The notes beneath the pieces are model-generated. The model saw nothing but the letters and a program-made list of their open reading frames with translations. It was not told the origin of the DNA and ran no database searches. Positions 4,401-7,785 of a stretch of 14,936 nucleotides of DNA are shown here, piece by piece; the stretch's first letter is position 1; the number at the start of each line of letters is the position of its first letter. Location of the stretch: NCBI RefSeq assembly GCF_003334765.1, contig NZ_QOWT01000054.1; one strand, given 5' to 3'. This DNA comes from Escherichia coli. GTDB taxonomy: Bacteria > Pseudomonadota > Gammaproteobacteria > Enterobacterales > Enterobacteriaceae. The translations under genes were made by a program, and so were the position numbers.

Positions 4401-4901
4401 TCACCAGCTCGACAAGACCATTTCCGGTAAAGCCACTTTACTGCTCTGTTTAAGTTCGTGCCGGGCCAGTGTGTCACTCAGTGCCTTCAGGAATGTTTCG
4501 GTCTGATACAGCAGGGGCAGGTTGTCACGGTCGTCCGGAGGCATGGCCCGAAGCGTTTTTTGCAGATGGTTGAACAGACCGGTAATAATTTCCAGCCGGG
4601 CGTGGGTATTCAGCGGCCACATCACTGACCAGTGATGCCGGGTCAGCGCCACAATCAGAGCCAGCCCTTCATTCAGACCACTTAACCCTGTTGTATGCAT
4701 CCGGGCGATGGTGTACCAGGATGCCGTCTGTAATTCCACGCCATTGTGTTCATACAGACGCAGGCAGAGTGTTTCCACGTAACGCCAGTCCACATCCGGG
4801 CGTGCCGGGTGAGTCAGTTTGCTGATTTCATCGCGCAGGGCAGCATAATCCGGTAATGACCGGGGGTCACCACCGGTTTTCAGTTTCACTTCAGAAGTCA
4901 T
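4401..4901 (-). CDS. ImpA-N-domain protein, probably a truncated type VI secretion TssA/VasJ-like gene
   Basis: 166-aa ORF whose N-terminal half (GGDPRSLPDYAALRDEISKLTHPARPDVDWRYVETLCLRLYEHNGVELQTASWYTIARMHTTGLSGLNEGLALIVALTRHHWSVMWP) fits the conserved ImpA_N pattern of TssA-family proteins as I recall it. Full-length TssA proteins are several hundred aa, so this looks like a fragment. The ORF ends where the AT-rich module begins (about 4370-4400). No Shine-Dalgarno at the annotated ATG. Confidence 0.5.
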   Translation of the reverse strand: MTSEVKLKTGGDPRSLPDYAALRDEISKLTHPARPDVDWRYVETLCLRLYEHNGVELQTASWYTIARMHTTGLSGLNEGLALIVALTRHHWSVMWPLNTHARLEIITGLFNHLQKTLRAMPPDDRDNLPLLYQTETFLKALSDTLARHELKQSSKVALPEMVLSSW

Positions 4902-4955
4902 CGGCAGATTCGGTGTTGCTGTATTAAATCATGATTAACAGTGACGAAAAGAACA

Positions 4956-5264
4956 TCAGTGTGATACCGGTACCCGGGAAAGGTATTCCACCGCGCGGAT
5001 AATTGCCGGTGTCACATCCCACCGCCGTTTCAGAACCGGCAACAGCTCATTAAGGTTTCTGATATAACGCTCAGTGAACAGCCGTTGTCCGTCCCTGGTT
5101 AAATGAAAACCTGACTGATTACAGGTAATGGTGATATGACAGGTATCGTTGCCAATATATACGGCTTCCTGGGGTCTGAATCTGACATTCCAGTACCAGG
5201 AATACGGGGAATGATTAAGATGAAAAAGACGCATCTGAATGTCACTGAATAATGGATTCATCAT
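4956..5264 (-). CDS. Hypothetical small protein (about 102 aa) downstream of the helicase
   Basis: The ORF-track frame extends to 5366, but the codon there is GTG and that stretch overlaps the helicase 3' end. The first in-frame ATGs are at 5262-5264 and 5259-5261 (MMNPLFSDIQMRLFHLNH...). No family recognised and no clear Shine-Dalgarno. Confidence 0.35.
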   Translation of the reverse strand: MMNPLFSDIQMRLFHLNHSPYSWYWNVRFRPQEAVYIGNDTCHITITCNQSGFHLTRDGQRLFTERYIRNLNELLPVLKRRWDVTPAIIRAVEYLSRVPVSH

Positions 5265-5325
5265 AAATAAAATACACCTGATAATAAAATATAGTGGAAA
5301 ACCAGAATAAAGAAATGGTCCGGTA

Positions 5326-7011
5326 TTATGCAAAATCCTCAAGGTGGCGACTGATACTGTTTTCACGGTAACAGGTCACCAGTAATTCACGGGTTGCCCG
5401 GGTGAACGCCACATAAAGCACCGGAATCACTTCAGACTCATCCGCTGCACCAGAGTGCACGAAAGACGCATTGATAACCGCCACATACGGGAACTCCAGC
5501 CCCTTGCTGCTCTGGTACGTCAGTAAATGCACCACATCCTTACGTCGCGAGTATGTCTTCTTGCCTTCCCTGTCAAAACAGGTGGCAAAAGGTACCCCGC
5601 GTAGTGTCATAACGTCCTGCAATTGTTGCGCTGAACGCTCTGTCGGACACAGCACAGCCATATCACTCCAGTGACCACACAGGACATGGCGCTTCTCCAG
5701 CCAGTCTGCAACTTGTCTGGCTTCATCACGTTCAGAAGCACAACGCAGGATTTCCGGCTCTGTACCCTCTTCACCGCCCGCCTGTGGCTGAACGAGCGGT
5801 ATTTCACGGTTCTGATGTTTTTCAAAATACTCGCGGGAGAATGCATAAGCAAAGTGCAGAATGCGTTTCGGATTACGATAATTGACCGGCAGGACAGAAG
5901 TGCGTCCCTGTGCCTGAATCCCCACACTGGCCAGAGAAAAGTTCAGGGCCCGCTCCCGCCGGTAAATGGACTGGGCGTCATCGTACATCAGGAGCAGTGA
6001 ACGGGATGCGTTATCAAACAGACGGGCAATCAGGGCCAGCCAGCGACTGTCAAAATCATGCCCCTCATCCACCAGTACAGCATCATATCCGGTTCGGGTG
6101 ATTTTTCCGCTGTTCACGGCCTCTTCCAGTGTACTGAAGCATTTATCAGGATATTCTTTTCTGTCGGCCGTCACCTTAATACCGTGGCGTTTTACCATTG
6201 AGGCACACCAGCTGTGAAAATGGGATACCGTAACCCGTGACGCCAGCCCTCTGGCTTCAATGCATTCCCGCAGATAGCTGGCCAGGGTAATGTTGTAGCA
6301 CAACACCAGAATCTTTCCGGGTGTGGTTTCAGCCAGGTAAAGGCAACGGAACAAAAGAATCATGGTTTTTCCGGAACCGGCCACACCATGAATGACACGA
6401 TGCCCGTCACCAATATTTCTGGCCAGAATCTCCTGCTGAATATCCATAATTTTGATTTGTGAGTTCTGTTTCACGGTCACTTCAGGAAACAGATGGGCGC
6501 GCAGAATATCTCTCATCCGGGGTGTCAGACGGGGCGTGTCCGGCTCAAGCTCATCCCGGCCCAGCACCACCCGCCAGGTATTTTTCTTCTGGTCAGGCTC
6601 CAGAAACATTGCTGCCACACCGGTAAATTTCGCCGCATCATCCAGAGGCATATCCACGGCTACTGAACCACCTGGCTGCAGCCATACATCTTTCTGTGCA
6701 ATGATATCGCCTGCCAGAATTTCATTGTCCCCTGTAAAAAGCGCCTGATAATCCGCACTGTCAAAACTCCGGTTGTCTTTAAGCTGATAAATCCGCACCA
6801 CAACCGACAGGGGAATACCGGCAGCACTGGTGTTAATGGCCTCCCTGGCACGAATATCCAGGTGAAGTGTTTTTATCTGTCGGTAAAACAGGGATTTCGT
6901 GGCAGATACCGTACCGTCTGCCACTCTTTGCGTCAGACCGCATCCTGATAACGACAGGGAAAACAACGCAATAATCAGACCGTAACCAGCCTTACCAGCG
7001 ATAATCGCCAT
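5326..7011 (-). CDS. Chimeric ORF: TssJ-like lipoprotein N-terminal region (about aa 1-165) in frame with a compact UvrD-like SF1 helicase/ATPase core (about aa 189-561)
   Basis: ATG at 7009-7011 with AAGGAG upstream. N-terminus has a lipobox (LSLSGC) and TssJ/SciN-like motifs (PLSVVVRIYQLKDNRSFDSADYQALF; FTGVAAMFLEPDQKKNTWRVVL). C-terminal part carries the full SF1A motif set: I VIHGVAGSGKT, II VLVDEGHDF, III MYDDAQSIY, IV LPVNYRNP, V LTYQSSKGLEFPYVAV, VI LYVAFTRATRELLV. Internal in-frame ATGs at 6514-6516 and 6445-6447 lack Shine-Dalgarno sequences. Confidence 0.7.
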   Translation of the reverse strand: MAIIAGKAGYGLIIALFSLSLSGCGLTQRVADGTVSATKSLFYRQIKTLHLDIRAREAINTSAAGIPLSVVVRIYQLKDNRSFDSADYQALFTGDNEILAGDIIAQKDVWLQPGGSVAVDMPLDDAAKFTGVAAMFLEPDQKKNTWRVVLGRDELEPDTPRLTPRMRDILRAHLFPEVTVKQNSQIKIMDIQQEILARNIGDGHRVIHGVAGSGKTMILLFRCLYLAETTPGKILVLCYNITLASYLRECIEARGLASRVTVSHFHSWCASMVKRHGIKVTADRKEYPDKCFSTLEEAVNSGKITRTGYDAVLVDEGHDFDSRWLALIARLFDNASRSLLLMYDDAQSIYRRERALNFSLASVGIQAQGRTSVLPVNYRNPKRILHFAYAFSREYFEKHQNREIPLVQPQAGGEEGTEPEILRCASERDEARQVADWLEKRHVLCGHWSDMAVLCPTERSAQQLQDVMTLRGVPFATCFDREGKKTYSRRKDVVHLLTYQSSKGLEFPYVAVINASFVHSGAADESEVIPVLYVAFTRATRELLVTCYRENSISRHLEDFA

Positions 7012-7534
7012 TTTCCTGAGTCTCCTTACGTTGATAATGTTCCTGAACCCGCTGATAACGCCCCAGACTGATGGTCATGACGCGTGCCGCTGAAGTCGCT
7101 ATCTTTGCCTGTGTTCTCATTACTGCCGTGCGCCCCAGTTGCGGACTACCGGCTGCCGGTCGGCAACTGAGCCGGGCATCCGGTAACAGTGAACGCTCAA
7201 CACAAAGTTGCAGACGTACATCCAGACGGCTTCCCAGATAAACATGCAACAACGCCAACAAATCAGAATACAGATGCCCGCCTGGTAACCAGCCCTGTAC
7301 CTCGCTGCCCGTCTGTGTTGAAAGCTGTAATAACACCTGTCCGTTCACATCCGTGGCATGATCGCCCATCACCGGGCGACTCTTCAGACTGACCGGGTGA
7401 TGAACACGCATGGTCAGCGGTGTTTTCAGCGGGATCCGTCGTCGGTCATGATGCCAGACACGGGCCTGTGTTCCGGGAGCCAGCAGCGTTACCAGTGATG
7501 TCAGCCCTTCAGCTGTTCTTCCGGGTAACAACAT
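6992..7534 (-). CDS. Hypothetical ORF upstream of the TssJ-like gene, possibly the 3' fragment of a disrupted gene
   Basis: ORF-track frame 6992-7543 begins on TTG (7541-7543); the first ATG is at 7532-7534. Overlaps the TssJ-like start by 20 nt. GC-rich, Arg/Leu/Pro-rich, no family recognised. A TagH/FHA-like C-terminus crossed my mind but I cannot support it. Confidence 0.25.
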   Translation of the reverse strand: MLLPGRTAEGLTSLVTLLAPGTQARVWHHDRRRIPLKTPLTMRVHHPVSLKSRPVMGDHATDVNGQVLLQLSTQTGSEVQGWLPGGHLYSDLLALLHVYLGSRLDVRLQLCVERSLLPDARLSCRPAAGSPQLGRTAVMRTQAKIATSAARVMTISLGRYQRVQEHYQRKETQENGDYRW

Positions 7535-7785
7535 CAGGGGCAATAACGCCAGAAAACGCGATACCGGCGTGGCAATATTCTGTGCACATCCGGGGATCCC
7601 CAGTCTGGCCAGACCGAGCAGATACTGGGATGTTTTATCCTGTCCTCCCGCCTCAAAGGTGGCCGGGTACGGGCAGCGTGGTCAGGGTGTGAATGGCGGT
7701 TTTCAGTTCAGTCTCAGAAGGGAAAATCAGTGTGGTCGCTGTGAACACGTCATCACACTAAGGTCAGATAAGTCGTCTGTCGGGC

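Follow-up and report, generated by a model that had tools for sequence, protein, structure and literature searches.

Fragments of the Sci-1 type VI secretion cluster joined at deletion junctions in an Escherichia coli contig

The DNA described here is the whole 14,936-bp draft contig QOWT01000054.1 of Escherichia coli (assembly GCA_003334765.1, locus L009 in our set), referred to below as the window. It contains fragments of a type VI secretion system (T6SS) gene cluster of the Sci-1 type, and its features are listed with their coordinates in Table 1. Every sizeable open reading frame (ORF) between positions 2755 and 8355 is carried by the minus strand. The best-matching complete E. coli genomes are carriers of an island of the type found in the enteroaggregative E. 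coli (EAEC) strain 042, in which the aai (T6SS-3) cluster, ibrAB, the Sci-1 T6SS and prophage-like genes of the CP4 type adjoin one another. Two T6SS clusters of 042, Ec042-4524-4555 and Ec042-4562-4577, have been placed in this region, the second belonging to a 117-kb pheU island (PMC2808357), and Sci-1 is the T6SS used in experiments (PMC6745524; bioRxiv 10.1101/2025.02.08.637259). For the alignment, two loci of E. coli 042 were joined to give a 65.6-kb reference, whose coordinates are marked "ref" below, and the window was aligned to it by blastn. The 042 locus itself is called L001, and six sister loci (L006, L007, L008, L010, L011 and L012) were drawn from NCBI and Logan assemblies. A first-pass annotation of the window had listed an ImpA_N fragment, a TssJ-like gene, a helicase core, a small ORF and an AT-rich block. 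All of these features are real, although several of the gene labels had to be corrected.

Table 1. Features of the window, the blocks it shares with the E. coli 042 reference, and the four deletion junctions (D1 to D4).
Feature	Position in window	Strand	Details
tagA pseudogene	4363..4901	-	internal 829-bp deletion (D1)
Small conserved hypothetical ORF	4956..5261	-	101 aa, intact; WP_001420595.1 in 042
Chimeric in-frame ORF	5326..7011	-	561 aa
NERD-UvrD helicase, 3' two-thirds	5326..6527	-	codons 197-595
tssJ, 5' part	6528..7011	-	codons 1-162 of 178
tssG, 3' fragment	6992..7671	-	codons 142-366 of 366; 100% identical to 042 tssG
D1 junction	4422..4423		829 bp lost relative to 042; 2-bp microhomology TT
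D2 junction	6527		3,224 bp lost; microhomology 1 bp exact, 10/11 imperfect
D3 junction	7663..7671		28,058 bp lost; 9-bp microhomology CCGGGTACG
D4 junction	13665-13678		about 7,379 bp lost; about 14-bp microhomology
Block 1	1-4423		ref 7802-12224, 99.98%
Block 2	4422-6527		ref 13052-15157, 100%
Block 3	6527-7671		ref 18381-19525, 100%
Block 4	7663-13678		ref 47575-53588, 99.93%
Block 5	13665-14936		ref 60954-62225, 98.8%
AT-rich two-gene module	2755..4148	-	KwaA/KwaB-like (Kiwa-like) candidate defence pair; GC 0.32-0.37
Multi-pass membrane protein, 186 aa	3588-4148	-	PADLOC KwaA, 3e-10, near full-length
276-aa protein	2755-3585	-	PADLOC KwaB, 2.4e-12, near full-length
ibrB-like (ParB-like, 214 aa) and ibrA-like (PAPS-reductase/DUF3440, 410 aa) genes	853-2714	-	16-bp overlap
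PerC-family regulator ORF	505-813		
D4 chimeric ORF	13332-13799	+	142 aa from ATG; MMR_HSR1 GTPase and DUF905 Pfam matches in sister contigs

The ORF at positions 4401-4901 of the minus strand encodes 166 aa and matches ImpA_N (PF06812) at residues 8-109 in Pfam (E 9.8e-18). It had been taken for a fragment of the TssA type. The domain and the strand were correctly recognized, but the fragment is a truncated TagA. The assignment to TssA, which has the arrangement ImpA_N plus VasJ, was rejected because 042 has tssA as a gene of its own, which the window has lost by deletion. The full 042 orthologue of the fragment reaches a score of 80.9 against the TssA profile TIGR03362, for which the cutoff is 230.1. 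The 5' 480 bp of the gene give 160 native residues, including ImpA_N, which are identical to residues 1-160 of the 455-residue protein of 042. After native residue 160 the frame is shifted, six residues (MVLSSW) follow, and a stop is found at position 4401, while the final 61 bp of the original gene (4363-4423) remain out of frame. The hydrophobic or transmembrane region and the VasL domain (PF12486) are missing from the stub, both having been removed by D1 and the frameshift. In locus L010 (ERR9385169) the same gene is intact and matches both ImpA_N and VasL in Pfam. TagA is an accessory protein built of ImpA_N, a hydrophobic segment and VasL, and it stops and holds the sheath (PMC6745524).

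In 042 the tagA gene is a single open frame of 455 aa (L001:12164-13531; NC_017626.1 4884070-4885437). We take this ORF to be the published TagA_EC, reportedly described by Santin et al. 2018, on the grounds of its architecture and its position; no paper linking the locus tag EC042_4550 to TagA was found in a literature search. The Prokaryotic Genome Annotation Pipeline (PGAP) splits this ORF of 042 into three pseudogene pieces, labelled ImpA_N, "POTRA domain" and VasL, and the same three-piece pattern is seen in 55989-like and other genomes. These calls are likely a systematic mis-annotation of TagA_EC.

Beside the tagA stub lies the small conserved ORF, whose mechanically derived version reaches a GTG at position 5366. 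It is annotated in 042, DLI.5a, 15A and OkiPb01677, and it adjoins tagA also in strains with an intact cluster. No match to it (4956-5261/5366) was found in Pfam, PADLOC, NCBIfam or PHROGs.

The 561-aa ORF that follows is a fusion of two genes. From the identity of its prefix and suffix to 042 proteins, it consists of TssJ residues 1-162 joined to residues 197-595 of a NERD-UvrD helicase, and the helicase core occupies residues 163-561 of the chimera. In Pfam, the T6SS-SciN domain (PF12790) is matched at residues 48-156 (E 4.2e-27), and UvrD-helicase, AAA_19, UvrD_C and UvrD_C_2 are matched from residue 187 onward. The PDB chains 6ixh and 6hs7, which represent TssJ in membrane-complex structures of EAEC, match residues 1-163. 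The signal peptide of TssJ, its lipobox LSGC and most of the SciN domain are kept. The first-pass annotation had reported a TssJ-like gene here. A SciN domain is indeed present on the same strand as the ImpA_N fragment, but it does not belong to a stand-alone gene: 162 of the 178 TssJ residues are followed by 399 helicase residues, and the TssJ part is the N-terminus of the helicase ORF. A helicase core and a small ORF without a family match, which had been noted between the ImpA_N and SciN sequences, do lie there, and on the same strand. The intact helicase of 042 has 595 aa with the NERD domain at residues 17-110; this part lies inside D2 and is hence absent from the window, and the chimera matches the PADLOC profile C3a187 "NERD+UvrD" at profile positions 172-556 only. 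As predicted from its sequence, the fusion would place a Sec/Lol lipoprotein signal ahead of an ATP-dependent helicase core from which the nuclease domain is missing.

The third T6SS fragment is the 3' part of tssG; it lacks the start codon of the gene, and stops lie ahead of it in the same frame. ORF 6992-7543 (183 aa), as listed, is only the part of tssG that follows an internal TTG. It matches the TssG profile TIGR03347 at positions 167-299 of 300 (E 1.2e-16), and because the gene is truncated the score of 60.8 falls below the cutoff of 143.3. The same gene in L008 and L012 matches PF06996 in the gene calls of these sister contigs. The ORF 6992-7543 was also considered as a candidate for TssJ, and this was rejected, as it is the C-terminal half of TssG.

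Comparison of the window with 042 gives five colinear blocks of 98.8-100% identity, and the gaps between the blocks arise only by deletion. In the alignment to the reference, no DNA absent from 042 was found in the window. Every break of a T6SS gene in the window coincides with a deletion junction and never with the end of an insertion, and no insertion sequence (IS) or integrase is present at the junctions. At D2 the join was made between two imperfectly matching stretches, CGGGG(C)GTGTC, which code for "TPR" in both genes. The Sci-1 remnant is 100% identical in DNA sequence to 042 across 3,251 bp, and the decay is therefore recent. By orthology and synteny with the Sci-1 locus of 042, the window carries a remnant allele of Sci-1 (T6SS-1). 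It represents the derived state, because the 042 versions of the genes are full-length with family-wide matches and those of the window are cut within domains. The opposite polarity, with 042 as a derived, insertion-bearing state, was rejected since the breaks slice conserved domains.

D2 took helicase codons 1-196, a 414-aa GIY-YIG/PD-Lambda-1 gene, a gene for a 137-aa lipoprotein, the whole of tssE and the final 16 codons of tssJ. D3 took tssG codons 1-141, tssF, a hypothetical gene, tssA, tssM, a second hypothetical gene, a PAAR gene, two copies of tli1, tle1, vgrG, two small genes, tssH/clpV, hcp, an OmpA-family (TagL-type) gene, tssL, tssK, tssC, tssB and the upstream sci1 promoter region, together with about 2.8 kb of island genes as far as a 52-codon ORF beside a Gp2-family gene. 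Not one of the 13 core genes has remained intact: tssG and tssJ are left as fragments, and the other 11 genes of the tssA-tssM set fall within D2 and D3. From a cluster of roughly 30 kb, only pieces of tssG, tssJ and the accessory tagA survive. The first-pass statements that this is a decayed T6SS cluster and that no intact core gene lies in the window are in agreement with these results.

The cause of the decay had been seen differently, namely as the work of foreign genes (the AT-rich module, the helicase and the small ORF) that inserted one after another, broke the T6SS locus and displaced its core genes. It is true that the block containing the helicase, the GIY-YIG gene and the lipoprotein gene, about 4 kb between tssE and the small ORF, is polymorphic: it occurs in the 042 arrangement in 71 complete genomes and is missing from 36, in which tssE directly adjoins the small ORF, with 84 bp between the two in OkiPb01677. 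It is also true that the AT-rich region (about 2500-4400, GC content 0.32-0.38) abuts the ImpA_N fragment, as had been noted, that its composition looks foreign, and that other strains have a different gene at this site. However, 042 holds all of these genes in the same positions beside a complete cluster, the window has nothing that 042 lacks, and the breaks map to deletion junctions. The synteny comparison thus shows the decay as deletions, and the presence or absence of the block is a polymorphism independent of it. D2 also damaged the helicase block, which lost NERD and its GIY-YIG neighbour along with tssE and the end of tssJ. An origin by insertion is consequently considered very improbable.

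A further possibility is that the junctions arose as artefacts when short reads were assembled into a draft contig. The window is such a contig over its whole 14.9 kb, and when D1, D2 and D3 were each screened as a 301-bp probe against 5,426 complete E. coli genomes, none of the genomes spanned any of the three. On the other side, the D1-D3 junctions are base-for-base identical in L006, L007, L008, L009 (the window), L011 and L012, so that at least six samples assembled independently of one another share them; D2 is found in a seventh, in another context. The microhomologies of 1-14 bp are also too short for a collapse of the assembly graph. Since the junctions are identical in independently made NCBI and Logan assemblies, they are not assembly errors, and an artefact appears barely credible. 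Their absence from the complete genomes shows instead that the allele marks a small clade, for which the three clean breakpoints could be used as markers of 100% specificity.

The order of events can be approached through one further locus. Over ref 7802-19525, from ibrAB to tssG, the sole single-nucleotide polymorphism (SNP) separating the lineage of the window from 042 is ref 11294 C>T, which is absent from 042, DLI.5a and 15A and present in L010. Locus L010 carries D2, yet its tagA is intact at 455 aa, its tssG is full, and it has another large deletion, of 25.5 kb (ref 20671/46231), nested within D3. Because L010 shares D2 and the lineage SNP but has an intact tagA and a different large deletion, D2 appears to be the shared and earliest lesion. 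The larger deletions and the tagA frameshift would have followed it, either independently or by extension of a deletion of the L010 type. This apparent intermediate suggests a stepwise decay after a first hit on tssE and tssJ.

The same cluster has been lost in other parts elsewhere. DLI.5a has the deletions 15906/28062, 28531/37715 and 38555/43037, and O111:H21 15A has 15812/33102 and 33537/44476. In strain 167 no more is left beside ibrAB than the helicase, the small ORF and tagA, and in further complete genomes the match to the query is confined to its helicase and small-ORF part.

Taken together, the region 4363-7671 is very probably the defunct 3' end of a Sci-1 cluster (T6SS-1 type) in a 042-type pheU-island mosaic, lost by deletions. 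The ancestor would have had the order tssB...tssM-tssA-tssF-tssG-tssJ-tssE, followed by the lipoprotein gene, the GIY-YIG (PD-Lambda-1) gene, the NERD-UvrD helicase, the small ORF, tagA, the Kiwa-like pair and ibrAB, and illegitimate, microhomology-mediated deletions would have stripped the cluster piecemeal. In this scheme D2 (3.2 kb) would have come first and taken away two essential parts, tssE and the tail of tssJ, and codon 162 of tssJ would have met codon 197 of the helicase in frame by chance. D3 (28 kb) would have removed the remaining cluster and its promoter, perhaps in two steps, and D1 (829 bp) would have put tagA out of frame. We infer that the remnant could no longer build a T6SS and that the 561-aa chimera is a non-functional, presumably neutral, by-product.

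Several points weigh against this interpretation. That the chimera and the 166-aa TagA stub are non-functional is deduced from the features of their sequences. The chimera is an intact and conserved 561-aa ORF, for which the chance of being in frame was about 1 in 3, and the placing of D2 first depends on a single intermediate assembly, L010. Other T6SS clusters of the source genome (aai, T6SS-2) may be intact.

An alternative is that the remnant has been kept for a working piece, for instance the lipoprotein formed by TssJ and the helicase or the ImpA_N stub of 160 residues, which would be expressed by read-through from the upstream Gp2-family gene and could modulate another T6SS or act in defence. 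The chimera is in frame with its signal peptide, lipobox and all helicase motifs, one strand carries every gene in the stretch that runs from the Gp2-family gene to ibrB, which makes read-through possible, and in sister contigs the tssB and tssC genes of aai/T6SS-3 lie about 9 kb away. Nevertheless, TssJ is short of its last 16 residues, the helicase has neither NERD nor its GIY-YIG neighbour, and TagA is without its membrane and VasL parts. An exported helicase would, from general knowledge, have neither ATP nor a DNA substrate. The conservation of the chimera says nothing about selection because all carriers are near-clonal, and their near-identity gives no signal of purifying selection. A promoter and terminator scan of positions 4200-8700 gave counts no higher than the shuffled expectation, so that promoter-like sites stand at chance level and the scan is uninformative on expression of the remnant. 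A retained function is accordingly judged highly unlikely, and the remnant is best regarded as debris of deletion. For annotators it is important to note that an intact-looking ORF of 561 aa can be a deletion chimera.

As to the nearby T6SS genes, L006 (20288-21686) and L007 (19614-21012) contain tssB (158 aa) and tssC of aai/T6SS-3 about 8.6 kb beyond tagA, past the left end of the window, and these genes look intact up to the contig ends. The cell may therefore still have another T6SS next door. Intact T6SS genes just outside the stretch could have spoken against a decayed locus, but those found belong to this separate cluster.

The 3' end of the intact Sci-1 cluster of 042 carries defence-type cargo between tssE and tagA. 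The 042 helicase (L001 13956-15743) is an end-to-end match to the PADLOC candidate C3a187 (8.7e-140), and its GIY-YIG neighbour (L001 15937-17181) matches PD-Lambda-1 (5e-88). On the other side of tagA, between ibrA and tagA, the AT-rich pair is likely, on a provisional basis, a divergent Kiwa-like anti-phage pair. The kwaA- and kwaB-like genes are adjacent and in the correct order, intact in the window and at the identical position in 042. The call comes from the PADLOC profiles; a Pfam search of the 276-aa protein gave no match, DUF4868 included, and a PDB sequence search gave no match for either protein. In strain 167 a different gene of 645 bp is found at the Kiwa-like site, which therefore looks variable.

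These observations allow another reading of the first deletion. Both sites flanking tagA, namely tssE/small ORF with PD-Lambda-1 and the NERD-UvrD helicase, and ibrA/tagA with the Kiwa-like pair or alternatives, would be hotspots for defence genes. D2 would have been favoured by selection because it eliminated a nuclease/helicase pair that was costly or autoimmune, the loss of T6SS-1 would be collateral, and the TssJ-helicase lipoprotein might still be made. We think that this is unlikely.

The remaining parts of the window lie away from the T6SS remnant. Lost in D4 are agn43, which codes for the Ag43 adhesin, irmA, a gene for a large membrane protein, the 3' part of a yeeP-like GTPase gene and a portion of a DUF905 gene. 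A second AT-rich block (11000-13300, GC content 0.32-0.38) includes a 339-aa ORF (12242-13261, plus strand) that gave no PADLOC or PHROGs match, and an IS1 remnant is found just upstream in 042-type genomes. IbrA has weak PADLOC matches to BrxP (2.4e-07) and DndC, which hint at a role in DNA modification or defence. An Rfam scan of the whole window gave no family above threshold.

The closest known system is Sci-1 of EAEC 042 and 17-2 (Ec042-4524-4555, pheU island). The surviving tssG, tssJ, helicase, small-ORF and tagA segments are 100% identical to it, and the flanks of the window (the Kiwa-like pair, ibrAB and perC on one side; the Gp2-family gene, hha and yeeP on the other) are colinear at 99.9%. 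Unlike this cluster, the window is short of about 32 kb in three deletions, and the promoter and the effector and immunity genes are all gone. With TagA the stub shares its 160 N-terminal residues, including ImpA_N, and differs in the missing membrane segment and VasL. With respect to C3a187 and PD-Lambda-1, the 042 genes match both, while the window has lost PD-Lambda-1 and retains part of the helicase profile.

A comparable loss has been described in E. coli ST410-B/H24 (ST, sequence type), in which clade-specific T6SS deletions of 21.0 kb and 19.8 kb have no mobile element at the junction (PMC10711316). As in the window, most tss genes fall in a large deletion, the members of a clade have the junction in common, and nested or alternative deletions occur as secondary events. 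The ST410 loss affects the rhs-linked T6SS-2 locus, whereas the window is affected in T6SS-1/Sci-1 within a pheU-type island, with other junctions and with the in-frame tssJ::helicase chimera. The event is thus of an already known kind in a known system, an ordinary loss of a secretion system. It adds one further lineage-specific case to the T6SS losses of E. coli, and the cluster concerned, Sci-1, is the one best studied by experiment.

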